Below are positions 12,170-26,784 of a DNA stretch of 32,000 nt, one piece after another. Where the stretch lies: assembly GCA_016210565.1 (NCBI GenBank), contig JACQUA010000037.1, forward strand, positions 1 through 32,000. The letters are read 5' to 3'. The position numbers and the translations under genes were made by a program. The notes beneath the pieces were generated by a model. It searched no databases. It worked only from the letters and a program-made list of their open reading frames with translations, and was not told the origin of the DNA. This stretch comes from Chloroflexota bacterium. GTDB lineage: Bacteria > Chloroflexota > Dehalococcoidia > JACQUA01. Numbering within the stretch: position 1 is the stretch's first letter; each line of letters begins with the position of its first letter.

Positions 12170-12256
12170 GAAGGGTAGGAAGAGTAGGAAGGGTAGGAAG
12201 GGTAGGAAGGGTAGGAAGGGTAGGAAGGGTAGGAAGAGTAGGAAGAGTAGCAAAGT
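12149..12256. repeat. Microsatellite: (GGGAGTA)n passing into ~10 copies of 9-bp GTAGGAAGG/GTAGGAAGA
   Basis: Direct reading. Opposite-strand frames give (LPT)n and (LPF)n. The array overlaps the rnc stop codon. Confidence 0.95.
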
Positions 12257-12371
12257 AGTTAGAGCAAGCAGTTAGCCGAGCGGGTGGGTAAGCATCCCGA
12301 TGCAATCGGGATGGGAACCCAGCAGAGCAAGGGGCACCAGAACGAAGCTGTGCAAGCCGTCCGAGAACAAC

Positions 12372-12416
12372 GGTGGGTTCGCGTCCCGATGTCATCGGGA
12401 CGCTTAACCCACCCTA
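12372..12416 (-). repeat. Dispersed repeat (copy b, inverted): GGTGGGTTCGC…GCTTAACCCACCCTA
   Basis: Reverse-complement relationship to 11041-11097. Contains internal palindrome CGTCCCGATGTCATCGGGACG. Confidence 0.8.
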
Positions 12417-12463
12417 CGGAACCGACTGCTGAATGCTGATAGCTGTTACCGAAAGGAGATAGC

Positions 12464-13990
12464 ATGGTCGAGAGGAACATCACGAGCCTGAGAGGCGCCC
12501 TGGACTATTTGAATTCCATCGGGGAACTATCTGTGGTGAAGGGAGAGGTGAGCCCTATCCTGGAGATTTCGGGCATCCAGAAGGCCCTGGAAAACGGGCC
12601 AACCCTGTTGTTCGAGAACATTCAGGGCTATCCCTGGGTCAGGGATGTGGGGAACATCTTCTCCCGCCGGGAGAGGGTAGCCAAACTCTTTGGCGCGGAT
12701 GATTACAAGCAGGTCAAATTCAAGTGCCAGGAGGCAATCCGCCATCCGCTGCCGGTGAAAGAGGTCACCGAGGCGCCTTGCCAGGAAGTGGTCATCGACC
12801 GGGACATAGATGTCATGGGGACCCTGCCCATATTGAAACATACCGAAAGGGACGGCGCCAGGATTCTGGGCGGGGGCAACACGTTGATCAGCGGCAAGTT
12901 CTTCCGGGGCGGCACACACATTTCTTTCAACCGGATGAGTTTTCGGGGAAAGGACTGGGGGACCATCTCTTTCGGCTCCGGCAATCACGCGGAATGGGTA
13001 ACCTACATCGAGCACCGTTCGGAGACGATTCCGGTGACCATCAACATCGGCAATCCGCCGGCGGTGACCGCCGCCGCGGCAGCCGGTTTCCTCCATCCCA
13101 TTGTGCCCATCGGCGCCGACGAGCTGGGGTTTTCGGGCGCGCTCCAGGGGTCGCCGGTGGAACTGGTTAAGGCGAAGACCGTGGACGCTTATGCCATCGC
13201 CCAGGCGGAATGGGTTATCGAGGGCTGGGTGAACAGCAAGGAGCGGGCCTGGGAAACCGAAGAGGCGGAGAAACTGGGTCGGATCGGGGTGGCGCCCTTT
13301 TTCCCGGAGTGGACGGGATACCTGGGAAGGGCCTACCGTCTACTGAAGTTCCACGTCACCGCCATCACGCACCGGCGTAACCGTCCCATCTTCTTCTCCC
13401 CCCTGGCCAATGGTTTCGAGACTGACATCGGCGGATCGCTGTTCCGTGAAGCCTGCTTCCTGGAACTGGCCGACCGCATGAGGCCCGGGCTGGTCCAGGA
13501 CGTCAATACGTTCGAAGGGGTGGCGGGGTGGGCGGGGCACGTGGTCTTCCAGGTGAAGAAAGCGCGGCGGGCCGATGAAGGCCACCAGAGGAACCTTCTG
13601 AGCGCGGCGCTGGCGGCGGCCCAGGGGCAGCGTCTGGTGATAGTGGTGGACGAGGATGTGGACATCTACAGCCCGGAGGACGTGCTCTGGGCTTTGACCA
13701 CCCGGCTGAATCCCGGCACGGGCCTCGTGCGCATAGCGGCGGGCGGCATGGGACAGGCGCTGATGCCGATGGAAAGATCAGGGATCGCCGTTCAGTCCAG
13801 CGAAGAGATCCGGCACGAAGGCGGCCTGGGTTTGGACGCTACCGTTCCCTTTGACGGCAAATGGAATTTCGAGAGGGCCAAACATCCGGGAGACAAGGTC
13901 GACCTGAAGAGATGGTTTACGGCTGAGGAGCTCGCCCGGATCAGGGAACAGCAGAGTCCCTATGCCCGGCTGATGGCGGTGAAGGGGTAG
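12464..13990 (+). CDS. UbiD-family decarboxylase, divergent subtype (paralog 1)
   Basis: LFENIQGYP, SFNRMSFRGKDW, KAKTVDAYAIAQAEWVIEG, APFFPEWTGYLG, VVDEDVDIYSPEDVLWAL. Aligns end to end with the ORFs at 18707 and 22231. Confidence 0.9.
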   Translation: MVERNITSLRGALDYLNSIGELSVVKGEVSPILEISGIQKALENGPTLLFENIQGYPWVRDVGNIFSRRERVAKLFGADDYKQVKFKCQEAIRHPLPVKEVTEAPCQEVVIDRDIDVMGTLPILKHTERDGARILGGGNTLISGKFFRGGTHISFNRMSFRGKDWGTISFGSGNHAEWVTYIEHRSETIPVTINIGNPPAVTAAAAAGFLHPIVPIGADELGFSGALQGSPVELVKAKTVDAYAIAQAEWVIEGWVNSKERAWETEEAEKLGRIGVAPFFPEWTGYLGRAYRLLKFHVTAITHRRNRPIFFSPLANGFETDIGGSLFREACFLELADRMRPGLVQDVNTFEGVAGWAGHVVFQVKKARRADEGHQRNLLSAALAAAQGQRLVIVVDEDVDIYSPEDVLWALTTRLNPGTGLVRIAAGGMGQALMPMERSGIAVQSSEEIRHEGGLGLDATVPFDGKWNFERAKHPGDKVDLKRWFTAEELARIREQQSPYARLMAVKG

Positions 13991-14093
13991 GGGGCGAATA
14001 ATCCCGTAGCGGCAGGACTTGCCCCTGACGGGGCAGGGCGAGGATGGGTGGTCCGCCGCCGCGGCGATGTCGGCAGGGCGCGGTGACCTCAGC

Positions 14094-14115
14094 CGACAGG
14101 CTGGAAAGCCTGTCG
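14094..14115. repeat. Perfect hairpin CGACAGGCTGGAAAGCCTGTCG (9-bp stem, GGAA loop)
   Basis: Direct reading. Located in the paralog-1 / ligase A intergenic region. Confidence 0.75.
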
Positions 14116-14221
14116 TACCGGGGGAGTTGACGGGGCCAGCCGAAATCCTGTATAAATTACCAGTTACGCGACCCCTTCTGGAAACCAGCATCGGAGGGAT
14201 TCGACGAAGGAGAATTTCTAA

Positions 14222-15871
14222 ATGGCGATTCCGGCGCGGTACACTCCACAGATGATGGAGGAATACCTGAAGACTGGCCAGTGGAACCCCGTTCCCTGGC
14301 CGGAGGTCTGGGACAATAACGCCAGGGATTTCCCGAACCATGAGGCTATTTGCGATGCCAGGACCCGCTTGACCTGGGGCCAGGCGAAAGAGTGGATCGA
14401 CCGGTTCGCTCTGGGGTTTCTGGAGATGGGTTTCAAAAGAGACGAGGTCATGGTTATCCAGCTACCCAACTCGGCGGAGCTGGCCCTCCTCCGCCTCGCC
14501 TGTGAGAAAGCAGGAATTCTTTGCGCTCCCGTTCTGCGCACCCTGCGGCACAAAGAGATGGAGTACATCCTCAGCTTCACCGGCGCCCGGGGTATCATCA
14601 TCCCGCTGGAGTTCCGCGGTTTCAATTATCTTCAGATGGTACAGGAGATCCGTCCCGTCCTGCCTGGTCTGAAAGACGTCTTCGTCGCCGGGGATGTGGC
14701 GCCCGCCGGGTGCGTCTCGATCAAAGAGATGCTGCAGAAACCCCTGGAAAAGAAATATCCCCCAGGCTATTTGAAGAAGTTCACCTATGATGCCAGGGAG
14801 ACTTCCTGGATCAGCCACACCAGCGGCAGCACGGGCTTTCCCAAGTTTGTCCAGATACCAGCGGTGGCACGGCGCAGCCTCTGCGAGGGCCAGGTGCATG
14901 TCCTGAAACTGACTCAGAAGGACGTCGTCGGGGCCCTTTCCCCGGCCACCGGCGGGCCGAACATCATCACCTACTGGGCGGCGGCGATGGTGGGCGCCAG
15001 GGTGGTCATGATGGAGCATTTCGAGGCCGAAGAGGCGATGCAGCTTATCCAGAAAGAGAAAATAAGCGTGGCAGGGCTGGTCCCCACCATGCTGACCGGC
15101 ATACTGCGTCATCCCAACCGGCACAAGTATGACTTGAGCTCGATGCGGGCCTGGTACTGCGCTGCCGGGACCCCGCCATTTCAATTGGTCAAGGAGCTTG
15201 AGGAGACGGTGGGCGGGAAGGTGATCCAGGCCTATGGAGCCGTGGATTACGGTTGCGCCACCAATGCCGGGCTGGACGACTCGATGGAAGTCAGGGTGCT
15301 CACGGCCGGCAAGCCGTGCTGGGGCGCCCGCCTGAAGATAGTCGATGACAATGGCAACGAGTTGCCCCGGGGGGAGGTGGGAGAGGTGTGGGGGACCGGC
15401 CCCGGAGGCGTCGGCGGCTATTACAAAGATGAAAAGGCTACCTGGGAAGCCTGGACCAGGGACAACTGGTACCGCACCGGGGACCTGGGAAAGATCAATG
15501 AAGACGGCAACCTGCTCATCGTGGGGCGGAAAAAGGAGATGATCAAACGGGGCGGACAGAACATCTACCCTATCGAGGTAGAGAAATTGCTGATAACCCA
15601 TCCCAGGGTGAACGACGTGGCTGTGGTGGGCATGCCGGACCCGGAGATGCTGGAAAGGGCCTGCGCCTACGTGGTCCCCAAGCCGGGGCAGAAATTTCTC
15701 TTTGACGATATGTCGGAGTTCTTGAAAGAAAAGGGCCTGGCGCCTTTCAAAATCCCGGAGAGGCTGGAAATCCTGGAAAAGATGCCCATGCTGGCGGCCG
15801 ACCAGAAGATCGACAAGAAGGTCCTGAAGGCGGACATTGTCGAAAAGCTAAAAGCCGAGGGTAAGGTCTAG
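14222..15871 (+). CDS. AMP-dependent acyl/aryl acid ligase (DhbE/EntE-like adenylate-forming enzyme), ligase A
   Basis: P-loop SHTSGSTGFPKF, YRTGDLGKINEDGNLLIVGRKKEMIKRGGQNIYPIEVE, C-terminal ADQKIDKKVLKADIV. Upstream RBS GAAGGAG. Confidence 0.9.
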   Translation: MAIPARYTPQMMEEYLKTGQWNPVPWPEVWDNNARDFPNHEAICDARTRLTWGQAKEWIDRFALGFLEMGFKRDEVMVIQLPNSAELALLRLACEKAGILCAPVLRTLRHKEMEYILSFTGARGIIIPLEFRGFNYLQMVQEIRPVLPGLKDVFVAGDVAPAGCVSIKEMLQKPLEKKYPPGYLKKFTYDARETSWISHTSGSTGFPKFVQIPAVARRSLCEGQVHVLKLTQKDVVGALSPATGGPNIITYWAAAMVGARVVMMEHFEAEEAMQLIQKEKISVAGLVPTMLTGILRHPNRHKYDLSSMRAWYCAAGTPPFQLVKELEETVGGKVIQAYGAVDYGCATNAGLDDSMEVRVLTAGKPCWGARLKIVDDNGNELPRGEVGEVWGTGPGGVGGYYKDEKATWEAWTRDNWYRTGDLGKINEDGNLLIVGRKKEMIKRGGQNIYPIEVEKLLITHPRVNDVAVVGMPDPEMLERACAYVVPKPGQKFLFDDMSEFLKEKGLAPFKIPERLEILEKMPMLAADQKIDKKVLKADIVEKLKAEGKV

Positions 15872-15872
15872 C

Positions 15873-15895
15873 TTTGCAAGGGGTCCCCTTGCAAA
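15873..15895. promoter_or_regulatory. 23-bp near-perfect palindrome TTTGCAAGGGGTCCCCTTGCAAA between ligase A stop and ubiX
   Basis: Symmetric arms of 11 nt around a central T. Begins 1 nt after the ligase A stop. No T-tract follows, so not an obvious intrinsic terminator. Confidence 0.45.
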
Positions 15896-15913
15896 TGTGA
15901 AGGGCTGACAAGA

Positions 15914-16477
15914 ATGGTACTCATCATCGCCATCACCGGCGCCTCCGGCGCCATCTATGGAATCAGGTTGCTGGAAGTGCTCAAACAGGCCGGGGACGTG
16001 GAAACCCACCTGGTCATTTCCGAGGCCGCGGCGCGTACCATCGAGTACGAGACCACCTACACCGTGGCCGGGGTCATGAAACTGGCGCACCACTGCTATG
16101 ACAACAAAGATGTCGGCGCGGCGCTGGCCAGCGGGTCCTTCCGCCGCGACGGCATGGTGGTCATGCCGTGCTCGGTCAAAACCATGGGGGCCCTGGCCCA
16201 TTCTTATTCGGAGAACCTGATTATCCGCGCCGGAGACGTGACTTTGAAGGAGCGGAAAAGGCTGGTGCTGGTGGTCAGGGAAACGCCGCTGCATCTCGGC
16301 CACTTGAGAAACATGGTGCAGCTTACGGAAATGGGCGCCGTGATCCTGCCGCCGGTGACCAATTTCTACAGCAAGCCGAAAACCATCGATGACCTGATCA
16401 ACCATATCGTCGGCCGCACGCTCGACCTTTTTGGCATCGACCATTCCCTGGTGAAGCGGTGGAAGGGGGAGGGGTAG
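15914..16477 (+). CDS. ubiX: UbiX-family flavin prenyltransferase
   Basis: IIAITGASGAIYGIRLLEVL, LVISEAAARTIEYE, VVMPCSVKTMGALAHSYSENLIIRAGDVTLKERKRLVLVVRETPLHLGHLRNM, GAVILPP. Confidence 0.93.
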   Translation: MVLIIAITGASGAIYGIRLLEVLKQAGDVETHLVISEAAARTIEYETTYTVAGVMKLAHHCYDNKDVGAALASGSFRRDGMVVMPCSVKTMGALAHSYSENLIIRAGDVTLKERKRLVLVVRETPLHLGHLRNMVQLTEMGAVILPPVTNFYSKPKTIDDLINHIVGRTLDLFGIDHSLVKRWKGEG

Positions 16478-16624
16478 TGATGTGGGGTTTGAAGGTTCAT
16501 AAGGTTATAAGGTTGGAAGGCTCGAAAGTTTGGCGGTTGAAAAGAGTAGAGGGTGATAGCTGACAACTGACCTCTGATAGCTACCCCAGAGGCTACCCCG
16601 GAGAACTCAAATAAGGAGGAGCGA

Positions 16625-17365
16625 ATGGCTACCGACTACGAGAACCTGCTCGACCTGGTGAGACGGAGGCGGAGCACCAGGCGCTACAAGCCGGACCCGG
16701 TGGCGGACGGGGACATCGAAAAGATAATCGAAGTGGCGCGGTGGGCTATGTCCGGGGCCAACGCCCAGCCCTGGGAATTCGTGGTGGTGAAAGACGGGAA
16801 TACCAGGGCAGAGATATTCGAACTGTACAAGCTACACCGGACGCAGACAGACGTGTTCAACAAGCTGCTGCCCCCGGAACTGAAGCATCCGGTCACGGGT
16901 ACGCTCAAGGCCGGCCAGCCTTCTTTCAGAGACGCCCCGGTGTTTATAGTGGTCTGCGGCGACAGCCGGACTCTGCTGGCCACCAGCCTGTCTGCGGAGA
17001 TAATGGGCTACGAACGCACAACGTATCATTTCAATCTGGCTAATGCCACGATGCTGGTCCACCTGGCGGCTGCTTCCTTGGGTCTGGGGACGCAGTGGAT
17101 CAGCACCAGCCCGATCTGGGAAGGGAAGCTGAAGACCCTTCTTGGCATACCCGACTGGTTTACGGTCCCGCATCTGGCGCCCCTGGGCTACCGCGATTAC
17201 ACGCCGCCACCGCCGTACCGGCGCGAGGTGTCCGAAATACTCCACCGGGAAGAATACGAACAGTCAAAATTCCGGACGGATGAGCAGGTCCTGGAGTACA
17301 TCGCGCTGGTAAGAAATCGGGCCAGGGCGGCGTACTACATTCCGCCCGAAAAAGGGAAGAAGTGA
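16625..17365 (+). CDS. Nitroreductase family FMN-dependent oxidoreductase
   Basis: RRRSTRRYKPDPVADGDIEKIIEVARWAMSGANAQPWEFVVVKD … MLVHLAAASLGLGTQWI … LLGIPDWFTVPHLAPLGY. Confidence 0.85.
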   Translation: MATDYENLLDLVRRRRSTRRYKPDPVADGDIEKIIEVARWAMSGANAQPWEFVVVKDGNTRAEIFELYKLHRTQTDVFNKLLPPELKHPVTGTLKAGQPSFRDAPVFIVVCGDSRTLLATSLSAEIMGYERTTYHFNLANATMLVHLAAASLGLGTQWISTSPIWEGKLKTLLGIPDWFTVPHLAPLGYRDYTPPPPYRREVSEILHREEYEQSKFRTDEQVLEYIALVRNRARAAYYIPPEKGKK

Positions 17366-17397
17366 CAGAGAAATGAGATAGAGATAGAGAAGCCGCG

Positions 17398-17454
17398 TAG
17401 GGTGGGTTAAGCACAGTGGGGCCTGGGGAAGATGGGTGGCTGGGCGAACCCACC
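17398..17454 (+). repeat. Dispersed repeat TAGGGTGGGTTAAGC…GCGAACCCACC, copy c
   Basis: Same 15-nt and 11-nt termini as copy a. Confidence 0.8.
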
Positions 17455-17590
17455 GTTCGACGCCAATTCCAATAACCAACCCCTGACTGAATCGGGGGCC
17501 AAAAGACTCCAACAACGAAATTCCAAATGAGAAAACCGACGGAGCCCTTTTGGGGGCTAGACCATTGGGATTTTCATATTGCTCCGAAAA

Positions 17591-17699
17591 TGTCACCCTG
17601 AGCGCAGTCGAAGGGTCTTTCGTCCGGCGCCCCACCTCGAAAGATTCTTCGACTATCCCGATTCTATCGGGACTGCGCTCGCTTCGCACAGAATGACAT
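17591..17699. repeat. MITE-like element TGTCACCCTGAGCGCAGTCGAAGGGTC…CGCTCGCTTCGCACAGAATGACA
   Basis: Imperfect terminal inverted repeats. Related copies at 26785-26909 and 28015-28197. Confidence 0.7.
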
Positions 17700-17783
17700 T
17701 TTCATCGTTCATTGTCCCGACTCGTCGGGATGGCCGATTGTTGTTTGGAATTTGGCTTTTGGGATTTGGAATTTCGCGTCGTT

Positions 17784-17841
17784 GGTGGGTTCGCGCAACC
17801 ACCCCGGTCAGCACCGCCCCATTTGCGCTTAACCCACCCTA
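17784..17841 (-). repeat. Dispersed repeat (copy d, inverted): GGTGGGTTCGC…GCTTAACCCACCCTA
   Basis: Same termini as copy b, inverted relative to copy c. Confidence 0.8.
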
Positions 17842-17885
17842 CCCGTATTGTGTCCTTTATTGTTAGCGGTCGAAAGAGTGACGGC

Positions 17886-18518
17886 ATGGCAACGGGTAAT
17901 ATTTTGACGAGACTGGAGGACGTGGCATCCCCGGCGCATACGGCGCTGGTGGTCATCGACGTCCAGAATGACTTCTGCCACCCGGAGGGCGCCATCGGGC
18001 GCAGCGGCAACGACCTGGGCCTTGTCCAGCAGATACTGCCGGGACTGTCCGCGTTCCTGTTGGGCGCGCGCCGGCTGGGGGTGAAGCCCGTCTTTATCCG
18101 GAACGTTTACAGCGCCCGCTATGTTCCGGTGTCCATGAGGGAGGCCCTGGAACGCAGGGGGTCTAAACCGAACTGCCTGCCCGGTAGCTGGGGCGCCGGT
18201 TTTGTGGAAAGTTGCGGCCCGGAAAAGGATGAGCTGGTCTTCGAAAAGCACTGTTACGATGCCACTACCAACAGGCGTTTTACCAGCTTCCTGAAGTCAG
18301 GAAACTATAGGACCGTGGTGTACTGCGGGGTGATGACCAACGTTTGCGTGGAGACCACCGCCAGGTCGACGGCCATGGCTGGATACTATCTGGTCGTGGT
18401 GGAAGACTGCGTCGCGAGTTACGACCGCGAAAGCCACCGGGTTACGCTCCGGAACCTGGACAAATACTTCGGGAGGGTGGTAAAGTCGGCCGACCTGCTG
18501 GCTGGCTGGGCCAGATGA
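17886..18518 (+). CDS. Isochorismatase-fold cysteine hydrolase
   Basis: Asp/Lys/Cys triad contexts: VVIDVQNDFCHPEG, LVFEKHCYDATT, VVYCGVMTNVCVETTARSTAMAGYYLVVVEDCVAS. Start ATG 17886 chosen; the ORF-track extension is repeat sequence. Confidence 0.82.
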   Translation: MATGNILTRLEDVASPAHTALVVIDVQNDFCHPEGAIGRSGNDLGLVQQILPGLSAFLLGARRLGVKPVFIRNVYSARYVPVSMREALERRGSKPNCLPGSWGAGFVESCGPEKDELVFEKHCYDATTNRRFTSFLKSGNYRTVVYCGVMTNVCVETTARSTAMAGYYLVVVEDCVASYDRESHRVTLRNLDKYFGRVVKSADLLAGWAR

Positions 18519-18547
18519 TGGCGGCAAACGATGAAGCTACGCGAAAG

Positions 18548-18556
18548 TGCTATAAT
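18548..18556 (+). promoter_or_regulatory. Candidate extended -10 promoter element TGCTATAAT upstream of UbiD paralog 2
   Basis: Exact TGnTATAAT match. No convincing -35. Would give a ~145 nt leader containing a palindromic repeat. Confidence 0.3.
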
Positions 18557-18580
18557 ACAGTCTCCTTAGCCCAGGATTCC

Positions 18581-18647
18581 GTAGGGGCAGACCCGTCCCG
18601 ACTTGTCGGGACCCGCGTGGCGGGCGAACACCGGGGTTCGCCCCTAC
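18581..18647. repeat. Nested palindromic element GTAGGGGC[…GTCCCGACTTGTCGGGAC…]GCCCCTAC
   Basis: Outer arms GTAGGGGC/GCCCCTAC and inner arms GTCCCGAC/GTCGGGAC read directly. Confidence 0.75.
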
Positions 18648-18706
18648 GGAGCGATTCGCAACGTGCGGTCTCTGGTCCGGGACCGAAACCAGAAGGGATA
18701 ACAGAT

Positions 18707-20224
18707 TTGTTGAAACCTCAGCTTAAGAACCTGCGGAGCACCGTACCCTATTTGAAGAGACTCGGTGACTTGATGGTGGTGAGAGGGGCGGTGGACCCCA
18801 TCTATGAAATCGCAGGCATCCAGAAAGCCCTGGACGGTGGGCCGGCCCTTCTTTTCGAAAACATCAAGGGCTATCCCGGGGTGCGCGATATCGGTAATGT
18901 GTTCAGCCAGAAGTCCCGGGCGCCTTTGCTGTTTGCGGTGGACGGCCCCCGGGAATTCAAGTTGCTCTGCCGGCAGGCGATCGCTAGGCCGCTGCGGCCC
19001 CGGGTGGTGAAGCAGGCCCCGAGCCAGGAAGTGGTCGTCACCGAGAAGCTGGATGTCCCGGCCACGTTACCCATCCTCAAGCATACCGACAGGGACGGCG
19101 GGCGCATCCTGGGGAGCGGGGTTATCCTGGTGGGCGGGGAGTTCTTCAAAGGGGGAAGGGAACTATCCTTCAAACGCATGAACTTCCGTGGCAAGGACTG
19201 GGGCAGCATCAAGGCCCTCCGGGGCACGCACTTCGGCGACCTGGCCCTGAAGGAGCACCGCGGCGCAACGATTCCCCTGACGGTGAATATCGCCCCTCCT
19301 CCGGCGGTGCTGGTTGTGGCCGGAGGCGGCTCACTCCATGCCATCGTGCCCGCCGGCGCCGATGAGCTGGCCATCGCCGGCGGACTTCAGGACTCGCCGG
19401 TCGCCCTGGTCAAAGCCCGGACCGTGGATGCCTACGCCATCGCCGAAGCCGAGTGGGTGATCGAAGGATATGTGGATACAAGGGAGAGAGTCTGGGAGAC
19501 CGACGAGGCGGAGAAAACGGGGAAGTTCGGCGCCGCGCCCTTCTTCCCGGAATGGGCCGGCTACATGGGCTGGGCGGTGCGCACGCTCAAGTTCCACGCC
19601 ACGGCCATTACCCATCGCCGGGACGGGCCTATCTTTTTCAGTCCGTTGGCCCGCTCTTTCGAAGGGGATAACCTCGTGGCCATGCTCCGGGAGGCCTGTT
19701 TTTGGGAGCTGGCGGAGCGGGAGTATCCGGGATTCGTCCAGGATGTGAACATCCTCCACGGAGTCACCGCTTCCAGCGGCGTCGTTTTCCAGGTGAGGAA
19801 GGGTGGCGCTGAAGAAGGGTTCCAGCGCAATCTTATCGGCAGCGCCTTTGCCGCCTCGCCGACCATGCGAATGGTGGTGGTGGTGGACGAGGATATCGAC
19901 ATATACAGCGCCGAAGATGTGCTGTGGGCGATCACCACCCGGTGTCAACCGGGTAGCGGGGTCATCAGAGGCCCGGGCGGGCGGAGGATTGTGATGTTCC
20001 CTTCGGACACCCTGGGCGCCACCGGAGAGGATGGGGACTTCCTGGTGGAAGCCGGTATCGGCTTTGATGCTACGGTACCCCTGCCGGCAAAGGTCCACTT
20101 CGAGAGACCCCATTTCCCCGTGGACAAAGTCGATCTTAAACGCTGGTTCACCGAGAGGGACCTCGTCAAAGCCAGGTTGAAACAGAGTGAATACGGTAAG
20201 GTACTGGGCCTCAACGGGTGGTAA
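18707..20224 (+). CDS. UbiD-family decarboxylase, divergent subtype (paralog 2)
   Basis: LKNLRSTVPYLKRLGDLMVVRGAVDPIYEIAGIQKAL aligns with the N-termini of the other two paralogs. SFKRMNFRGKDW, AEAEWVIEGYVD, APFFPEWAGYMG, VVDEDIDIYSAEDVLWAI. TTG start (18707 or 18710) preceded by AGAAGGG; the ORF-track start at 18344 is spurious. Confidence 0.88.
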   Translation: MLKPQLKNLRSTVPYLKRLGDLMVVRGAVDPIYEIAGIQKALDGGPALLFENIKGYPGVRDIGNVFSQKSRAPLLFAVDGPREFKLLCRQAIARPLRPRVVKQAPSQEVVVTEKLDVPATLPILKHTDRDGGRILGSGVILVGGEFFKGGRELSFKRMNFRGKDWGSIKALRGTHFGDLALKEHRGATIPLTVNIAPPPAVLVVAGGGSLHAIVPAGADELAIAGGLQDSPVALVKARTVDAYAIAEAEWVIEGYVDTRERVWETDEAEKTGKFGAAPFFPEWAGYMGWAVRTLKFHATAITHRRDGPIFFSPLARSFEGDNLVAMLREACFWELAEREYPGFVQDVNILHGVTASSGVVFQVRKGGAEEGFQRNLIGSAFAASPTMRMVVVVDEDIDIYSAEDVLWAITTRCQPGSGVIRGPGGRRIVMFPSDTLGATGEDGDFLVEAGIGFDATVPLPAKVHFERPHFPVDKVDLKRWFTERDLVKARLKQSEYGKVLGLNGW

Positions 20225-20250
20225 AAGAAGATCAAAGGCCGAAATGGAAT

Positions 20251-20338
20251 GTCACTGCGAGCGAAGCGAAGGAATCCCCCAGTTGGCTCTACATCCGGGG
20301 GATTGCTTCGTCCCGAATAAATCGGGACTCGCAATGAC
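20251..20338. repeat. MITE-like element GTCACTGCGAGCGAAGCGAAGGAATCCCCC…GGGGGATTGCTTCGTCCCGA…TCGGGACTCGCAATGAC
   Basis: Terminal inverted repeats plus internal inverted segments. Half-elements match the 31.2-31.5 kb repeat region. Confidence 0.75.
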
Positions 20339-20364
20339 GGTCAATAACTCAAGGAACTCATCCT

Positions 20365-22008
20365 ATGGCTAAGCCAGTGCGCTTTACCCCTGAAATGATA
20401 AAGCACTACCAGAGCCTGGGAATCTGGACCTCTGACAGGCTTTCCGAATACTGGGACAAGAACGCCGCGGAACGTCCGGACAGGGAAGCCGTGGCAGACT
20501 CGCGGGGCAGGCTGACCTGGGCGCAGGCAAAGCAGTGGATCGACCGCATGGCCCTGGGACTGCTGGGACTCGGCTTTACCAGGGATGACATGCTGGCGGT
20601 GCAACTCCCTAACTGTGTCGAGCTCATGCTGCTCCGGATAGCCACGGAAAAGGTCTGTGTGCTGTGCCTGCCCGTCCTGAGGACCTTCCGCCAACAGGAA
20701 ATGGAATATATTCTGAAACGGACCGGGGCGGTGGGGCTGGTCGTCCCGTGGCGCTATCGCGGCTTCGATTATTTCCAGATGGTACAGGAAATAAGACCGG
20801 CTCTGCCGAACCTGAAACACGTGATCTCAGCCTGGGACGACATCCCTCCGGGTACGATTCCGCTAAAGGGCATCGTCGAGAAGCCTTCGGAGCGGGACTA
20901 CCCCGGCGACTATCTGAAGAAGACCACCTGCCCCCCCGTGGAGTACTCTCTGGTATTGACCACCAGCGGAACGACGGGATTCCCCAAGTTCGTGGAACAC
21001 CCGGTGTGCAGCCGCATCTATATCGGGAAGGTCTACGCCAAGGGCTGGAAGATCACCGAGAGCGACGTGATCGGCGTACTGGGTCCGGCCGCCACAGGCC
21101 CCAACCACGCCGCTTACTGGTCGGCCCCCTTGGTGGGCGCCCGGTGCGTCATGCTGGAGCATTTCGAAGCGGAGGCCGCCCTGCGACTGATTGAAAAGGA
21201 AAGAATAACGTTTACCGGTTTTGTCCCGGCGCAGCTCGCCCTTCTGCTGCGGCACCCCAATTTCGACCGCTACGACCTTAGCTCGCTGAGGTGCGTTGTG
21301 TGCACCGGCGCTCCTTTGAGCTACAAGCTGGGCGTTGAGGCTGAGGCGAAGCTGAAATGTCCCATCGTCCAGTCGTACGGCTCGGTAGACGCCGGCGGCT
21401 CGATGATGCACTACCCCGAAGACTCCCAGGAAGTCCGCCTTCTCACGGCAGGTCGCCCCATGCCGGGTGTGGAAATGAAAATAGTTGATGACTCCGGCCG
21501 GGAGGCGCCCAGGGGGGCGGTGGGCGAGGTCTGGGTCCGCGGTCCAACGTTCGTTTCCGGCTACTACAAAGACCCGGAAGCTACCTCCCATGGCTGGACG
21601 CCCGATGGCTGGTTCCAGATGGGCGATCTCGGGAAGTGGAATGACGGCAACATCATGATTGTCGGACGCAAGAAAGACATGATCATCCGGGGCGGCCAGA
21701 ATGTCTATCCCGTGGAGATTGAGAACTTGCTGGTACTGCATCCCAAAGTGGCCGGCGTCGCCGTCGTGGGTATGCCCGACCCGGTCATGGGAGAACGGGC
21801 CTGTGCCTTCGTCGTGCCCAGGCCGGGCGCGGAGTTCACTTTTGAGGAGATGGTCTCATTCCTGAAGGAAAAGAACATCGCCATGTTCAAAATTCCGGAG
21901 CGCCTCGAACTGCTGGAGCGTTTCCCGATGGTGGCCGCCGACCAGAAGGTAGACAAGAAGGTCTTGCAGCAAATCATCCGCGACAAGCTGGCCGGCGAGG
22001 GGAAGTAG
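20365..22008 (+). CDS. AMP-dependent acyl/aryl acid ligase (DhbE/EntE-like), ligase B
   Basis: LTTSGTTGFPKFV, GDLGKWNDGNIMIVGRKKDMIIRGGQNVYPVEIENLL, AADQKVDKKVLQQII. Colinear full-length homolog of ligase A. Confidence 0.9.
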   Translation: MAKPVRFTPEMIKHYQSLGIWTSDRLSEYWDKNAAERPDREAVADSRGRLTWAQAKQWIDRMALGLLGLGFTRDDMLAVQLPNCVELMLLRIATEKVCVLCLPVLRTFRQQEMEYILKRTGAVGLVVPWRYRGFDYFQMVQEIRPALPNLKHVISAWDDIPPGTIPLKGIVEKPSERDYPGDYLKKTTCPPVEYSLVLTTSGTTGFPKFVEHPVCSRIYIGKVYAKGWKITESDVIGVLGPAATGPNHAAYWSAPLVGARCVMLEHFEAEAALRLIEKERITFTGFVPAQLALLLRHPNFDRYDLSSLRCVVCTGAPLSYKLGVEAEAKLKCPIVQSYGSVDAGGSMMHYPEDSQEVRLLTAGRPMPGVEMKIVDDSGREAPRGAVGEVWVRGPTFVSGYYKDPEATSHGWTPDGWFQMGDLGKWNDGNIMIVGRKKDMIIRGGQNVYPVEIENLLVLHPKVAGVAVVGMPDPVMGERACAFVVPRPGAEFTFEEMVSFLKEKNIAMFKIPERLELLERFPMVAADQKVDKKVLQQIIRDKLAGEGK

Positions 22009-22059
22009 CCAGTAGTGAGTAGCGAGTAGTGAGTAGGCAGTAGCCAGTAGCCAGTAGCA
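22006..22059. repeat. Short simple repeat of (G)CCAGTAG/CGAGTAG/TGAGTAG units beginning at the ligase B stop codon
   Basis: TAGCCAGTAGTGAGTAGCGAGTAGTGAGTAGGCAGTAGCCAGTAGCCAGTAG. Confidence 0.85.
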
Positions 22060-22128
22060 CAGACGTCCCGCCTGTGACAGCGATCAGTAGTAGGTCGGGC
22101 TGGCTGCGCGAACCCACCGAACCCGGTA

Positions 22129-22208
22129 CGACGGGCTTCCAGCCCGTCGGCTTCGGTCTCGTCCCTGCGGGCGGGACGCAGGGAATCGCTACGGGCAGGA
22201 CGCCCGTA
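22129..22208. repeat. Three tandem hairpins upstream of UbiD paralog 3
   Basis: CGACGGGCT-TCC-AGCCCGTCG (22129-22149), TCCCTGCG-GGCGGGA-CGCAGGGA (22162-22184), TACGGGC-AGGAC-GCCCGTA (22190-22208). Confidence 0.8.
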
Positions 22209-22230
22209 ATACTTTTAGTTAGGAGAAGAA

Positions 22231-23766
22231 ATGCCCTCTCGAAACAAGAACGAAGCTATCAGGAGCTTGAGGAGCACAGTCGACTTGCTGGAGCAGAGTG
22301 GGGAGTTGCTGAGAATAAAGGGTGAGGTGGACCCTATCTATGAAATATCGGGTATTCAAATGGCCCTGGAGTCCGGCCCGGCCATACTTTTCGAAAACAT
22401 CAAGGGCTATCCCCACGCCAGGGACATCGGCAATGTTTTCGCCCGGCGGGACAGGATCGCGAAGATGTTCGGGACCGACGACCACCGCCAGTTGAAGTTC
22501 AAGTGCATCGATGCCATGACCAACCCCATAAAGCCCAGGGTTGTGGAGCGCGCCGCCTGCCAGGAAGTGGTCATCAAAGAAAACATCGATGTCCTCAACT
22601 ATTTGCCCGTGCTGAAGCATACCGTCAAGGACGGGGGACGCATCATCGGCGGCGGCAACATGTTCATCAGCGGCAAGTACTTCAAGGGCGGCACCCACGT
22701 GTCCTTCAACCGGACCCATTTCCAGGGGAAGGACTGGGCCAGCATGCAGGCCTTTGTCGGCACCCACCTCGGGGACAGCTTCTTTGTCCACCGGGGCGAA
22801 CAGGTGCCGATGACCATCAACATCGGCAATCCGCCGGCGGTGACTTTCGTCGCCGGCGGCACGGTGATGCACACCCTGCTCCCCCGGGGGACCGACAAGC
22901 TGGGCATCGCCGGGGCGTTGCAGGGCTACCCGGTAGACATTGTGCCGTGCAAGACGGTGGATGCTTTCGCCATTGCCGAGGCGGAATGGGTGATCGAAGG
23001 CTACATGGACACGACTGAGCGGGTCTGGGAAAGCCCCGAAGCCAACAAGGTGGAAGCCTACGGCGCAGCGCCCTTCTTCCCGGAGTGGCCGGGTTACATG
23101 GGACGGGCCATGAAGACATTCAAGTTTCAGGCTACGGCCATTACCCACCGGAAAGACCGCCCCATCTTCTTCAGCCCGCTGGCCCATTCCTATGAGGGGG
23201 ATATTCTGTGCGCCATGCTCCGGGAGGCCTGTTTGTACGAGCTGGTTGACCGGCTGATACCGGGTCTGGTGAAAGATGTCTACATCCTGGACGGCGTCGG
23301 GCCGCGCGCCCACGTCATCTTCCAGGTGGAGAAAAGAAGGCCTGGCGACGAGGGCTACTCGAAAAACATCATCACCGCCGCTTTTGGCGCCACCCAGGGC
23401 CTCTACCTGGTCGTGGTGGTCGACGAGGACGTCGATATCTACAGCGCGGATGACGTGATGTGGGCCATCATCACCAGGTTGAACCCCGAGACGGGCATTC
23501 TGCGTGGCACCGTGGGTGGGCGGGGCTCGCCGATGATGCCCCTGGAGAGAGTCGGCTTGAGCGGCAAGGTGGTGGGTGAGTTCCATTATCCGGGCGGCCT
23601 CGGTCTGGACTGCACCGTTCCTTTTGGCGAAAAGTGGGCCTTCGACCGGGGGAGATACCCGGTGGACCGCGTCGATTTGAAGAGATGGCTAACGGACGAG
23701 CAGATTGCGGCCGTCAAGGCCGTCCAGCCTGACTTTGCGAAACTGATGGCAAAGAGGGGTGGTTAG
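22231..23766 (+). CDS. UbiD-family decarboxylase, divergent subtype (paralog 3)
   Basis: LFENIKGYPHARDIGNVFARRDRIAKMFG, SFNRTHFQGKDW, AEAEWVIEGYMD, APFFPEWPGYMG, VVDEDVDIYSADDVMWAI. RBS AGGAGAAG. Confidence 0.9.
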   Translation: MPSRNKNEAIRSLRSTVDLLEQSGELLRIKGEVDPIYEISGIQMALESGPAILFENIKGYPHARDIGNVFARRDRIAKMFGTDDHRQLKFKCIDAMTNPIKPRVVERAACQEVVIKENIDVLNYLPVLKHTVKDGGRIIGGGNMFISGKYFKGGTHVSFNRTHFQGKDWASMQAFVGTHLGDSFFVHRGEQVPMTINIGNPPAVTFVAGGTVMHTLLPRGTDKLGIAGALQGYPVDIVPCKTVDAFAIAEAEWVIEGYMDTTERVWESPEANKVEAYGAAPFFPEWPGYMGRAMKTFKFQATAITHRKDRPIFFSPLAHSYEGDILCAMLREACLYELVDRLIPGLVKDVYILDGVGPRAHVIFQVEKRRPGDEGYSKNIITAAFGATQGLYLVVVVDEDVDIYSADDVMWAIITRLNPETGILRGTVGGRGSPMMPLERVGLSGKVVGEFHYPGGLGLDCTVPFGEKWAFDRGRYPVDRVDLKRWLTDEQIAAVKAVQPDFAKLMAKRGG

Positions 23767-23834
23767 GCTGTGGAGAAGTTAATGCAGACGCACTACATTG
23801 ACCCGGATTACGCATCAGGCCGGCGGGGTTGTAG

Positions 23835-23855
23835 CCGCAGGTCTTTAGCCTGCGG
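23835..23855. repeat. Short palindromic element CCGCAGGTCTTTAGCCTGCGG
   Basis: 7-bp stem CCGCAGG/CCTGCGG. Same style as the other small palindromes. Confidence 0.6.
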
Positions 23856-24066
23856 GGGTGGGGAAAAGTGAAGCCCACGAATAGTTCATGTATAGAATAT
23901 TGTGTCATCTCATCGTCTCTGTGTTCTCGGGTGTCTCTGTGGTGAAAGCTCACGCTTTTCGTTGGCACACCGCACGTTGCTCGGGCGTGACTCGCTCATC
24001 TTCATCCTTGAATATTGCCGCTGATAGCCGAAAGCTGATAGCTGTTAACTTTTCGATGGAGGAAAC

Positions 24067-25683
24067 ATGGCTTACTACAAAGACCTCAGGGAACACATCA
24101 AGGCATTGGAGGCGGCGGGGAAGCTGGTCCGGATAAAGAGACCGATCATCAAGGAAACTGAACTTCATCCCCTGGTCCGGTGGCAGTTCCGGGGATTGCC
24201 GGAAGAGGAAAGGAAGGCCTTCCTGTTCGAAAACGTCGTCGACGTCAAGGGGAAGAAATATGACATGCCGGTGCTGGTGGCCTCGCATGCCGCCTCTCGC
24301 CAGGTTTACGCCATCGGGATGATGTGCAAGCCGGAAGAGATCATGGACCGGTGGTCCAACGCCGAGCTTCACCAGGTGGACCCGGTCACGGTATGCACGG
24401 GGCCGGTCTGCGAAGAAATATTCAAAGGAGACAGGCTGATGGAGCGCGGGTGTCTGGAGGAGTTTCCCATACCTATCTCCACACCAGGCATGGACAACGC
24501 GCCCTACCTGACGGCGGCCAACTGGGTAACGAAAGACCCCGAGACCGGCATCCCCAATGTCGGCAACTACCGCGCCATGTTGAAAAGCCCGACGCGCCTG
24601 GGCATCTGCTCCCTGGCCACGCAGCATCTCAGGGAACACTGGGACCGCTGCCGGGCGAAGGGGATTCCTTTGCAGGCGGCTATTGTCATGGGTGCTTCCC
24701 CCGCGGTAGGATACGTGGCCACGGCCAAGTTGCCCTACGGGACAAACGAGTTCAGAGTGGCCGGAGGGATTGCCGGAGCGCCACTGGAGATGGTCAAGTG
24801 CCAGACGGTCGACCTGGAAGTTCCCGCCACTTCTGAAATCGTCATCGAGGGAATAATGCCCACCGACTTCCAGGAGCGGGAAGCGCCGTTCGGCGAATAC
24901 ACAGGTTACATGGGCATGGAAGCGATCAACCCGGTATTGAATGTGACCTGCGTCATGCACCGGAAGAACCCCATTTACAACGCTTTCCTCAGCCAGTTCC
25001 CGCCCAGCGAAAGCAGCAAGCTGCGCCAGATTGGCACTGAGGCCGTCTTCTACAAGTTCTTGAAGCATGACTGCAACATTCCCGGCATCCTCGGCGTGTC
25101 CATCCATGAAAGCAGCGGCGCCGCCGAGTACATTGTCATCAGCATGAAGAAGACCCATCCCTCCCAGGCCTGGCAGGCTCTGAACGGCGCCGCGGCGTTC
25201 ATACCGAACGTTGGTAAGATCATCATTGTCGTGGATGAAGACATCGACCCGGCGGACCCGGACTCGGTGAACTGGGCGCTGAGCTTCCGCATGCAACCCC
25301 ACCGCGATTTGAGGGTCAGTCATGGCAAGGTTTCGGGGCTGGACCCGTCCTCCGCTCCCATGACCGATCCCAACCGTCGCTATCCGGGCGTCCAGGGGGC
25401 GTCGGTCCTTTTGCTCGACGCGACGCGAAAATGGCCCTATCCGCCGACTTCGCTTCCCAAGAAAGAGTTCATGGAACACGCCCGGAAGATCTGGGAGGAG
25501 GAGGGTCTGCCGAAGCTCACCCCAAAGAAGCCCTGGTTTGGCTATAATCTCGGCTTCTGGAGCACGGAGTATGACGAGGAAGCGCAGCTAGCACTAAAGG
25601 GAGAGTATTTCAAAACAGGGGAAAAGCTGGCCAAACGCCGGATAACGGGGGAGGCAGCCAAGAGCATGGGCGAGGGAGGATAG
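24067..25683 (+). CDS. UbiD-family decarboxylase, more canonical subtype
   Basis: LFENVVDVKGKKYDMPVLVASHAASRQVYAIGM, LEVPATSEIVIEG…EREAPFGEYTGYMG, HEDxD-like VVDEDIDPADPDSVNWAL. RBS GGAGG. Confidence 0.9.
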   Translation: MAYYKDLREHIKALEAAGKLVRIKRPIIKETELHPLVRWQFRGLPEEERKAFLFENVVDVKGKKYDMPVLVASHAASRQVYAIGMMCKPEEIMDRWSNAELHQVDPVTVCTGPVCEEIFKGDRLMERGCLEEFPIPISTPGMDNAPYLTAANWVTKDPETGIPNVGNYRAMLKSPTRLGICSLATQHLREHWDRCRAKGIPLQAAIVMGASPAVGYVATAKLPYGTNEFRVAGGIAGAPLEMVKCQTVDLEVPATSEIVIEGIMPTDFQEREAPFGEYTGYMGMEAINPVLNVTCVMHRKNPIYNAFLSQFPPSESSKLRQIGTEAVFYKFLKHDCNIPGILGVSIHESSGAAEYIVISMKKTHPSQAWQALNGAAAFIPNVGKIIIVVDEDIDPADPDSVNWALSFRMQPHRDLRVSHGKVSGLDPSSAPMTDPNRRYPGVQGASVLLLDATRKWPYPPTSLPKKEFMEHARKIWEEEGLPKLTPKKPWFGYNLGFWSTEYDEEAQLALKGEYFKTGEKLAKRRITGEAAKSMGEGG

Positions 25684-26144
25684 GAAGGGGGGGATGCGGG
25701 GGTGCCGGAAAGCGCTGAAATTATTTCCGCGACCAGATCAGTTTGAACAGCGCCTTATTATCCCGTCCTCTCCTCCTGGCATCTCGGGTCCCCCGTCGTT
25801 GAGACGAAGCCCGACGCCGGTCTACTCCCCCGCACACAACGAATATACTACGGAATGTGTTAAAAAGTCATAACAAACACCGCCCGAAATATCAAAACAT
25901 TATGACATTTAGCAAGCCGAATCGCCGTATTTGAGCCACGAATAAACGAGAATGAACACGAAAACGGTTTATCGGGGACACTCGAGTGAAAGTGCGCCGG
26001 CTTGAACGGTGACGACAGATAGGGCTCTGTTTTCCTCGAAAAAGGCTTTCTGGAGCGTATTCGCGGGAAATCGTGTTTATTTGTGGTTCCGTTTCCCTGG
26101 CGCTTGCCGCAGCGGCTCCTGACGGCACTTGGTACGGTAATTAG

Positions 26145-26720
26145 TTGACAGATGCTAAGAACAGCTCTGAGAGACCCGAGGCCGCCGCGGTAGACAGGCT
26201 TGTGGCGGAGCTGGCAGGCGAGGACGGCTTTGCCCGGGAGAGGGCCAGACAAGCCCTCGTGGATATAGGTGAGCCTGCCCTGGACAGCCTCATCAAGGCA
26301 CTGTCGGACAAGCGGAAACAGGTGCGGTGGGAGGCGGCGAAAGCCCTGCATGACATAGGGCATCTCAGGGCTGGTCCGGCCCTGGTAAGGGCGCTTGAGG
26401 ACAGGGAATTCGATGTCCGGTGGCTGGCGGCAGAGGGCCTTATTGTGCTGGGCAGGAGTGGCGCCATTCCCTTACTGGGGGAGCTTGTTGCCAACGCCGA
26501 CCGGTCCTGGTTGAGGCAGGGCGCCCATCATGTCCTGAACCACCTGGCGGGAGGGGATGTCAACGAACACCACATAATGGCCCATCCTATCGCAGAAGAC
26601 AAGGATCTCGGCGAAATACTGAAGCCCGTTGTGGAAGCGCTGGAGGATGTTGAGCCGGCGGTCAGCGCGCCGCTGGCGGCGAAGACTGCTCTGGATGCGT
26701 TGAGAAGCACCCGCGCGTAA
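26145..26720 (+). CDS. HEAT-repeat domain protein
   Basis: Repeated pattern ARERARQALVDIGEPALDSLIKAL / VRWEAAKALHDIGHLRAGPALVRAL / VRWLAAEGLIVLG. TTG start. Confidence 0.75.
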   Translation: MTDAKNSSERPEAAAVDRLVAELAGEDGFARERARQALVDIGEPALDSLIKALSDKRKQVRWEAAKALHDIGHLRAGPALVRALEDREFDVRWLAAEGLIVLGRSGAIPLLGELVANADRSWLRQGAHHVLNHLAGGDVNEHHIMAHPIAEDKDLGEILKPVVEALEDVEPAVSAPLAAKTALDALRSTRA

Positions 26721-26784
26721 ACCTGGTCTTACCCTGCTTGGACGCAGGAGAAGGCCACTGTAGCCGTTGCCAGTGGCCGTAAAC

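Follow-up and report, generated by a model that had tools for sequence, protein, structure and literature searches.

What might four UbiD-family decarboxylase genes, interleaved with two ligase genes and accompanied by one UbiX gene, do in a Chloroflexota genome? Such an array occupies positions 12464-25683 of the 32,000-nucleotide (nt) stretch of contig JACQUA010000037.1 analyzed here (the window). Pfam and NCBIfam searches identify nine plus-strand genes in this interval: four UbiD-family genes (UbiD1 to UbiD4), UbiX, two AMP-forming ligases (Lig1 and Lig2), a nitroreductase-family flavoprotein, and an isochorismatase-fold hydrolase (Table 1). This composition agrees with the first-pass annotation of the stretch, which had also proposed a phthalate-type cluster combining acid activation with decarboxylation dependent on prenylated flavin mononucleotide (prFMN). 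Our answer, held with moderate confidence, is that a conserved seven-gene subset forms a catabolic operon of "activate, then decarboxylate" modules for aromatic di- or polycarboxylic acids, working without oxygen.

The phthalate-type proposal gains support from the identity of three of the four decarboxylases. UbiD1, UbiD2, and UbiD3 are mutually 54-56% identical, and for each of them the closest relative of solved structure is phthaloyl-coenzyme A (CoA) decarboxylase (Pcd), a UbiD enzyme that acts on a CoA thioester; the match extends over the full length, with E of roughly 1e-105 to 1e-114. UbiD1 matches the Pcd structure 8oz5 with E 1.2e-114 over residues 8-501, and UbiD3 matches the Thauera chlorobenzoica Pcd structures 8oz5/8pmk with E 1e-104; the next structures for all three proteins are AroY protocatechuate decarboxylases, at E ~1e-50. 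Identity to the T. chlorobenzoica enzyme is 40.7% for UbiD1, 37.5% for UbiD2 (over 499 residues), and 36.1% for UbiD3. UbiD4 is only 25-32% identical to these three. Thus, the earlier count of four UbiDs stands, but the four are not equivalent, being three Pcd-like paralogs and one canonical UbiD.

Measured against the T. chlorobenzoica enzyme as characterized reference, UbiD1-3 are relatives of Pcd rather than its orthologs, and they belong to a separate, uncharacterized cluster at the 50% identity level. The Pcd orthogroup is tight, since T. chlorobenzoica Pcd shares 75% identity or more with over 120 database clusters, including all of the best 120 among the matches listed, which are proteobacterial-type Pcds. 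When 1.84 billion 50%-identity representatives were searched exhaustively with a profile, a compact Pcd-like family emerged, with about a dozen full-length clusters above ~500 bits; weaker relatives follow at ~290-400 bits, and the general UbiD level is reached near 240 bits. Among these representatives, P0369 is the one with which Pcd groups (58% identity), and UbiD1, UbiD2, and UbiD3 all group with P0006 (77% identity to UbiD1). In a neighbor-joining tree of 80 proteins, they form three sister lineages in a subclade of proteins from Dehalococcoidia, Desulfobacterales, and Syntrophales metagenome-assembled genomes (MAGs), apart from the subclade of Pcd and Rokubacteria proteins and from that of Syntrophorhabdus; the tree carries no bootstrap support, and the identity figures bear the main weight. 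All four UbiDs fall short of the NCBIfam equivalog models for ubiquinone UbiD, menaquinone decarboxylase, and VdcC and of those for the alpha and beta subunits of phenylphosphate carboxylase, and UbiD1-3 score 132-168 bits against the model TIGR00148, under its cut-off of 244.85.

At least two more Pcd-like paralogs are found on other contigs, namely MBI4333566.1 (P0004, 80%) and MBI4331175.1 (P0014, 61% to UbiD1); judged from the neighboring accession numbers, both are probably encoded in the MAG of the window itself. In the related genome GCA_041642995.1, Pcd-like genes number three or more and are dispersed, and two UbiD4-like genes are also present. Together, these cases suggest a lineage-specific expansion.

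The order UbiD1-Lig1-UbiX-UbiD2-Lig2-UbiD3-UbiD4 is conserved outside the window. It recurs in a contig from a groundwater metagenome (L001 among the related loci that we fetched), and locus L090 is apparently the same. The L001 proteins are 83, 81, 86, 80, 75, 89, and 86% identical to those of the window, in operon order; the intergenic spacers in L001 are 14-193 nt long, and the operon is followed on the minus strand by the same superoxide dismutase and amine-oxidase genes as in the window. With the gene order retained in an independent contig whose proteins are 75-89% identical, the grouping of these genes is beyond chance. In the Dehalococcoidia MAG CAZFEA01, separate short contigs carry an RNase III gene followed by UbiD1 (L005) and the series Lig2-UbiD3-UbiD4 (L008). 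The gene order and flanking genes of L001/L090 and L005/L008 show that the operon is vertically conserved at one chromosomal site. The expectation of conserved synteny in relatives is thereby borne out, with the whole seven-gene order in L001/L090 and pieces of it in the Dehalococcoidia MAG.

The two remaining genes, which the earlier description had included in the cluster, do not belong to this conserved unit. A DNA alignment shows that window positions 16471-18705 (2.2 kb), containing the nitroreductase and hydrolase genes, are replaced by ~38 nt in L001; downstream of the cluster, positions 25656-27135 (~1.5 kb), which encode a HEAT-repeat protein, are similarly replaced by ~340 nt. No homolog of the nitroreductase or of the hydrolase was found in 95 fetched related loci. 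We therefore treat the pair as strain-specific insertions. The nitroreductase has weak generic NCBIfam matches, and its PDB matches are to uncharacterized structures only. The hydrolase consists of an Isochorismatase domain alone, without an aryl-carrier domain; its best PDB match is RutB, followed by biuret hydrolase, at 60-72 bits. Inside the 2.2-kb indel, the two genes are separated by a gap of 520 nt.

According to motif alignments (HMMER to Pcd and AroY; L-INS-i), neither the catalytic Arg (R157, R157, R161, and R169) nor the catalytic Glu (E282, E282, E285, and E277) has been lost from any of UbiD1 to UbiD4. The roles of the five key positions (H/N, R, H, E, and E) are presumed from the Fdc1 and UbiD structures. 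UbiD1 (H152, R157, H175, E220, E282) has the H/R/H/E/E pattern of Pcd. UbiD2 differs at the first position, E152, where Pcd has His, and retains R157, H175, E220, and E282. UbiD3 has H156, R161, H179, K223, and E285, and UbiD4 (N164, R169, H187, E228, E272/E277) displays the canonical N-x4-R, H, E, and E-x4-E motifs. A loss of the catalytic Arg in UbiD3, as it appeared in a MAFFT alignment that shifted N-x4-R by four residues, was rejected by the HMMER alignments to AroY and Pcd and by L-INS-i.

An unusual residue of the cluster is K223 of UbiD3 (nt ~22897-22899). In the alignments this Lys, in the context GTDKLG, falls opposite the Glu of Pcd (CDEIG) and of AroY (YNELG). Of the 19 database representatives in the alignment, 18 have Glu here, as do Pcd, AroY, UbiD1, UbiD2, and UbiD4. 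We take this Glu to be the one that, in Fdc1/UbiD, bridges the metal ions holding the prFMN phosphate. The Lys is kept in the UbiD3 orthologs of L001 and L008 (88-89% identical) and in sister proteins from three other loci (L009, L012, and L049); because of this conservation, it is a selected feature rather than a sign of decay. The Lys may provide a metal-independent hold on the prFMN phosphate.

The first metal-ligand position is variable as well: it is His in Pcd, UbiD1, and UbiD3, Glu in UbiD2, the canonical Asn in UbiD4, and Asp or Cys in other representatives of the Pcd-like cluster. Pcd has been reported to depend on Fe2+, and the variation at this position may be related to that dependence. 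The residues surrounding all three motifs differ systematically among UbiD1, UbiD2, and UbiD3 and are conserved inside each set of orthologs, which we interpret as a probable sign of different substrate pockets.

UbiD4 follows another pattern. Its TIGR00148 score of 257.6 bits exceeds the cut-off of 244.85, and its best PDB match is the 2,5-furandicarboxylate decarboxylase HmfF (6h6x/6h6v, E 3e-58); Pcd is matched only at E 3e-13. HmfF is thus the closest solved relative and has the generic UbiD motifs in common with UbiD4, but it is a distant one, with 448 residues compared to the 538 of UbiD4. The latter belongs to a very large, uncharacterized, Chloroflexota-rich family, with 7814 matches at E<=1e-40, the named ones coming mostly from Chloroflexota, Dehalococcoidia, and Desulfobacterales MAGs. 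Genes of the UbiD4 type often adjoin genes for ABC-type solute-binding proteins. Orthologs of UbiD4 come after UbiD3 in L001, L090, and L008.

The assignment of UbiX is straightforward (NF004685, 268 bits against a cut-off of 188; TIGR00421, 258 bits against 109). In L001 and L090 the gene has kept its place, with 86% identity, and a single UbiX is present both in the window and in the orthologous locus, in agreement with the previous suggestion of one UbiX for four UbiDs.

Lig1 and Lig2 are class I adenylate-forming enzymes of ~548 residues, 55% identical to each other. They had been labeled DhbE/EntE-like. DhbE (1md9, 231 bits) is their best PDB match, and EntE and salicylate-AMP ligases are also among the top structures; the label reflects this structural match and not a family assignment. 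The best NCBIfam models are FadK-like/medium- and long-chain, AliA-like cyclohexanecarboxylate-CoA, and DhbE-like ligases, about equal in rank, and all NCBIfam scores of Lig1 and Lig2 are under half of the respective cut-offs. For the 2,3-dihydroxybenzoate (DHB)-AMP ligase models, the scores are 265 bits for TIGR02275 (cut-off 724) and 227-237 bits for PRK10946 (cut-off 783). The open reading frames (ORFs) of the window include no carrier protein, nonribosomal peptide synthetase (NRPS), isochorismate synthase, or DhbA. Since a carrier protein, NRPS, and isochorismate synthase are missing, a role as CoA ligases is far likelier than siderophore arylation.

The ligase family (at least 42% identity) comprises 13 distinct genes in the fetched loci, and 12 of them lie within 600 nt of a UbiD gene, which is Pcd-like in 11 cases and PpcA-like in one; the 13th, in L090, stands at the edge of its locus and is cut off. 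In the window, as in L001/L090, Lig2 separates UbiD2 from UbiD3; in L008 it comes before UbiD3.

Single pairs of ligase and UbiD genes also recur across lineages. One contig (L093) carries a module of UbiD1 and Lig1 (76% and 80% identity), divergent from a UbiD3-like gene that is accompanied by a third type of ligase. A Desulfobacterales MAG contains a pair of UbiD2 and Lig2 (L018; 76% and 72% identity), and in L092 a ligase gene is followed by a UbiD3-like gene. A natural explanation of these recurrences is that we are dealing with independent modules rather than with one obligate complex. The similarity of the L018 pair also suggests lateral transfer of modules between phyla. The same Desulfobacterales MAG, JAUYIZ01, has at least four Pcd-like loci (L011/L088, L012, L018, and L024), and in L088 the module adjoins a phage-integrase fragment.

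In the fetched loci as a whole, 51 of 88 Pcd-like genes have a ligase gene (AMP-forming or PaaK-type) or a gene for a family III CoA-transferase within 5 kb; this is probably an underestimate, since many contigs are truncated. Other recurrent neighbors are TRAP/TAXI transporters, UbiX, enoyl-CoA hydratases (16 of 88), and LigW-type Amidohydro_2 proteins. Greedy longest-ORF calling in GC-rich loci gave some spurious antisense clusters, and only Pfam-confirmed neighborhood clusters were used. The ligase or CoA-transferase, TRAP, and UbiX neighbors mirror the known anaerobic phthalate and isophthalate clusters (PMC13040137, PMC9516798).

In the Chloroflexota genome GCA_041642995.1 (L085; JBGGHL010000113.1, 7011-21126), genes for a Pcd-like UbiD (62% to UbiD1) and a ligase (54%) precede those for two HGD-D proteins, subunits from the superfamily of benzoyl-CoA reductase (BCR), 2-hydroxyacyl-CoA dehydratase, and double-cubane reductase. 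The scores of the HGD-D proteins are 224 bits for the double-cubane reductase-like model (cut-off 350) and 120-142 bits for the BzdN- and BcrC-like ones. Genes for a solute-binding protein and hydantoinase A/B follow; AFOR is encoded upstream, on the opposite strand. The HGD-D proteins may provide a dearomatizing or dehydratase partner for the aryl-CoA product. In a metagenomic locus (L089; JGI 3300038380, Ga0434945_000362, 7511-12851), the genes run in the order AFOR, a ligase 53% identical to Lig2, a PpcA-like UbiD that scores 419 bits against the phenylphosphate carboxylase alpha model (cut-off 565), and Phenyl_P_gamma; the group resembles a carboxylase of arenes or phenols, accompanied by an aryl-CoA ligase and a BamB-like oxidoreductase. 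The same locus has a Pcd-like gene beside a LigW-type amidohydrolase, 4 kb from the PpcA-like cluster.

The pathway that we propose follows a known logic, in which CoA activation precedes decarboxylation by a UbiD-like enzyme, with prFMN from UbiX, to give benzoyl-CoA (PMC13040137, PMC9516798). Lig1 and Lig2 would use ATP to link CoA, as a thioester, to one carboxyl group of an aromatic or heteroaromatic acid that carries two or more of them. By homology to Pcd, an adjacent Pcd-like UbiD with prFMN supplied by the single UbiX would then release another ring carboxyl as CO2, yielding benzoyl-CoA or a substituted aryl-CoA. UbiD1, together with UbiD2 and/or UbiD3, would decarboxylate the ligase-made aryl-CoA, and the presumed product would enter ring reduction specified by genes located elsewhere in the genome. 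In other genomes a ligase of its own accompanies UbiD3; here there is none, and UbiD3 may share Lig2 or accept the product of another step. UbiD4 would probably act on the free acid rather than on a CoA ester. Given their differences around the catalytic motifs, a division of labor among the three Pcd-like paralogs is most likely, by isomer, by substitution pattern, or by successive decarboxylation steps. Gene content, homology, synteny, and the retained motifs are what the sequences show; the substrates, the specificity of UbiD1-3 for CoA esters, and the decarboxylating direction are the predicted parts of this scheme.

A close parallel is the anaerobic o-phthalate pathway of Thauera, Aromatoleum, and Azoarcus, which consists of Pcd (8oz5/8p02/8pmk), UbiX, and a succinyl-CoA:phthalate CoA transferase (PMC13040137). 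It resembles the present locus in the full-length similarity of UbiD1-3 to Pcd, the presence of UbiX in the cluster, the adjacent CoA-activating gene, and the H/R/H/E/E residues of UbiD1. The differences are the 36-41% identity to Pcd and the different 50%-identity cluster, three tandem paralogs instead of one, two ligases, an extra canonical UbiD, the absence of a TRAP transporter and CoA transferase from the cluster, and the Chloroflexota host. Desulfosarcina cetonica reportedly has an ATP-dependent phthalate-CoA ligase instead of the CoA transferase.

In the anaerobic isophthalate pathway of Syntrophorhabdus aromaticivorans, a PaaK-type ligase, IPCL (SynarDRAFT_0375), acts with a UbiD-like isophthalyl-CoA decarboxylase and UbiX, and the succession of ATP-dependent ligase, UbiD-like aryl-CoA decarboxylase, and benzoyl-CoA is the same as that proposed here (PMC9516798). 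The Syntrophorhabdus Pcd-like proteins (L047, L055, and L057) belong to the same superclade as UbiD1-3 but to a separate subclade, at 48-50% identity. The ligases differ, IPCL being a PaaK-type protein of ~49 kDa, whereas Lig1 and Lig2 are class I enzymes of the FadK/AliA/DhbE-like kind.

Several observations weigh against the aromatic-acid pathway. The CoA-ester specificity of UbiD1-3 is extrapolated, since their identity to Pcd is 36-41% and they fall in a different cluster, and UbiD3 lacks the canonical metal-binding Glu. Lig1 and Lig2 belong to neither of the two activating types compared here, the PaaK-type isophthalate ligase and the family III CoA transferase (PMC9516798); the families that they match best are those of medium-chain CoA ligases, cyclohexanecarboxylate CoA ligases, and DhbE, all below cut-off, and a ligase of their family also partners the PpcA-like carboxylase of L089. 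Finally, as the first-pass annotation had noted, the annotated ORFs of the window include no transporter, regulator, aryl-CoA (benzoyl-CoA) reductase, or ring hydratase, and no other downstream-pathway genes.

The ligase matches give some room to a non-aromatic interpretation, in which the modules act on alicyclic or unsaturated aliphatic dicarboxylic acids (cyclohexane- or cyclohexene-dicarboxylates, or acids of the glutaconate or muconate type) and the Pcd-like enzymes decarboxylate an alpha,beta-unsaturated acyl-CoA. For both ligases, the top NCBIfam matches include cyclohexanecarboxylate-CoA ligase (290-334 bits) and medium-chain fatty-acid CoA ligase; glutarate is another substrate of the isophthalate ligase (PMC9516798), acrylic acids are among the substrates of the UbiD family at large (PMC5818171), and the enoyl-CoA hydratase genes near 16 of the 88 Pcd-like genes fit such a route. 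We nevertheless consider it rather unlikely, as all the ligase matches are far under the equivalog cut-offs, the sole characterized relative of UbiD1-3 acts on an aromatic CoA ester, and related loci contain aromatic-pathway markers, namely PpcA-like UbiD, BCR-like subunits, AFOR, and LigW-type Amidohydro_2. Another scenario reverses the direction of the reaction: the UbiD paralogs would form a heteromeric carboxylase of the phenylphosphate, benzene, or naphthalene type that adds a carboxyl group to an arene, either unsubstituted or phenolic, with the ligases capturing the resulting acid as its CoA ester. The clustering of several UbiDs with an aryl-CoA ligase and UbiX does recall PpcABCD, AbcAD with BzlA and UbiX (abcA-bzlA-ubiX), and the N47 naphthalene carboxylase cluster with its four UbiD-like genes (PMC12016498), and in L089 a relative of Lig2 is adjacent to a PpcA-like UbiD and Phenyl_P_gamma. 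However, against the phenylphosphate carboxylase alpha and beta models UbiD1-3 score 58-91 bits, within an overall range of 58-129 bits, compared to cut-offs of 469-565. Small gamma or linker subunits, a delta phosphatase, ParA/MinD components, and a VdcD-like small subunit are absent from the annotated genes and the small intergenic ORFs, each paralog type occurs alone with a ligase in other genomes, and each UbiD retains its own catalytic Arg and Glu. This scenario is therefore improbable.

Two further explanations have very little probability. The adenylating ligases, with DhbE, EntE, and salicylate-AMP ligases as best PDB matches, and the isochorismatase-fold gene within the cluster could evoke a catecholate siderophore or another secondary metabolite made by DhbE-like adenylation and an EntB-like isochorismatase, and UbiD/UbiX pairs (BagN/BagM) exist in biosynthesis, to which the matches here are weak. 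Such a product is essentially excluded by the ligase scores (227-265 bits against cut-offs of 724-783 for the DHB-AMP ligase models), by the type of hydrolase, and by the lack of partner genes in the window (isochorismate synthase, DhbA, NRPS, carrier protein). Unlike EntB/DhbB, the hydrolase has no fused carrier domain and no siderophore context; it is RutB- or biuret hydrolase-like and missing from the conserved operon, and DhbE is the best solved structure for ligases that lie below the equivalog score. Housekeeping quinone biosynthesis, through UbiD/UbiX or the decarboxylase of the menaquinone futalosine pathway, is about equally remote. Homologs of these genes are often auto-annotated as 4-hydroxy-3-polyprenylbenzoate decarboxylase, and UbiX is present. 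The equivalog scores (70-139 bits against 788 for the UbiD model PRK10922, and 96-212 against 496 for menaquinone decarboxylase) and the interleaving of four UbiD copies with CoA ligases essentially exclude this function, and the closest structures are Pcd and HmfF.

A bolder form of the aromatic-acid pathway can be formulated. The operon would provide an anaerobic route for benzene-polycarboxylic acids or for all three phthalate isomers, with one ring position per Pcd-like enzyme; one of these would perhaps be a terephthaloyl-CoA decarboxylase, and UbiD3 would be the first UbiD to hold prFMN by a Lys instead of the metal-binding Glu. In this full form the proposal is improbable, and no gene here is tied specifically to terephthalate or any other defined substrate.

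The enzyme families and the pathway logic are already known; the arrangement and the lineage are new. The operon, conserved in Chloroflexota, combines three diverged Pcd-like paralogs, two non-PaaK ligases, a canonical UbiD, and one UbiX; all the UbiD1-3, ligase, and UbiD4 components lie outside characterized orthogroups, and one of them has the unusual Glu-to-Lys replacement at the cofactor site. Anaerobic phthalate degradation is usually seen as a recently evolved response to plastics, Pcd being known from a small number of Proteobacteria, and how terephthalate is degraded anaerobically has yet to be worked out (PMC13040137). We observed a diverse, largely uncharacterized Pcd-like family that is closely coupled to CoA-activating enzymes in uncultured groundwater Chloroflexota and in other MAGs, its carriers including Desulfobacterales, Syntrophales, and Rokubacteria. 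The locus also hints at a broad natural family as the origin of the "xenobiotic" Pcd. If the proposed pathway is correct, the operon would point to natural aromatic polycarboxylates (from humic matter, lignin, or black carbon) as the original substrates of the Pcd-like family, it would supply candidate genes for isomer-specific aryl-CoA decarboxylases, and UbiD3 would offer a natural Glu-to-Lys variant for probing prFMN binding in UbiD enzymes.

Table 1. Genes of the UbiD cluster, with coordinates in the window.
Gene	Description	Position	Strand	Length and support
UbiD1	Pcd-like UbiD-family decarboxylase	12464..13990	+	508 aa, MBI4330029.1; UbiD_N, UbiD, UbiD_C (Pfam)
Lig1	AMP-forming acyl/aryl-CoA ligase	14222..15871	+	549 aa; AMP-binding and AMP-binding_C (Pfam)
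UbiX	Flavin prenyltransferase (prFMN synthase)	15914..16477	+	187 aa; Flavoprotein/UbiX family (Pfam), NCBIfam above cut-offs
Nitroreductase	Nitroreductase-family flavoprotein, accessory, inside indel	16625..17365	+	246 aa; Pfam Nitroreductase, 98 bits
Hydrolase	Isochorismatase-fold cysteine hydrolase/amidohydrolase, accessory, same indel as nitroreductase	17886..18518	+	~210 aa; Pfam Isochorismatase, 133 bits
UbiD2	Pcd-like UbiD-family decarboxylase	18707..20224	+	505 aa; UbiD_N, UbiD, UbiD_C (Pfam)
Lig2	AMP-forming acyl/aryl-CoA ligase	20365..22008	+	547 aa; Pfam and NCBIfam results as for Lig1
UbiD3	Pcd-like UbiD-family decarboxylase, Lys223 for metal-binding Glu	22231..23766	+	511 aa; three UbiD domains
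UbiD4	Canonical, non-Pcd-like UbiD-family decarboxylase	24067..25683	+	538 aa; three UbiD domains, TIGR00148 above cut-off

The gene starts in Table 1 involve two choices. For UbiD2, the start is most likely the TTG at 18707, and the longer ORF from 18344 is not the gene, because the gene call of the L001 ortholog and the length of P0091 (MBI4330034.1) agree with the shorter form; the latter protein, of 505 amino acids (aa) and from the same 62,310-nt contig, is taken to be UbiD2 on the basis of length and contig. The hydrolase likely starts at the ATG at 17886, although its ORF opens at 17712. Long minus-strand ORFs overlap the nine genes, as expected in DNA of 60% GC; neither these nor the small intergenic ORFs have a Pfam match, so the statement that all confident ORFs of the interval are on the plus strand holds.

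No Rfam family or tRNA was detected in the window, and promoter and terminator scans gave nothing informative. Upstream of the cluster are genes for a GHMP kinase, a DinG-like helicase, a CCA-adding enzyme, an S8 peptidase with PKD domains, and RNase III; downstream, the HEAT-repeat protein is accompanied by an Fe/Mn superoxide dismutase, an amine-oxidase-like flavoprotein, and a B12-binding radical SAM protein. These flanking genes are housekeeping or surface genes unrelated to the cluster. The last two, the flavoprotein (amine-oxidase/phytoene-desaturase-like) and the radical SAM protein (with DUF4070), lie beyond the superoxide dismutase gene on the minus strand, at 28291-31076. As far as can be told, they are unconnected with the UbiD operon; the flavoprotein gene is syntenic in L090, at 68% identity.

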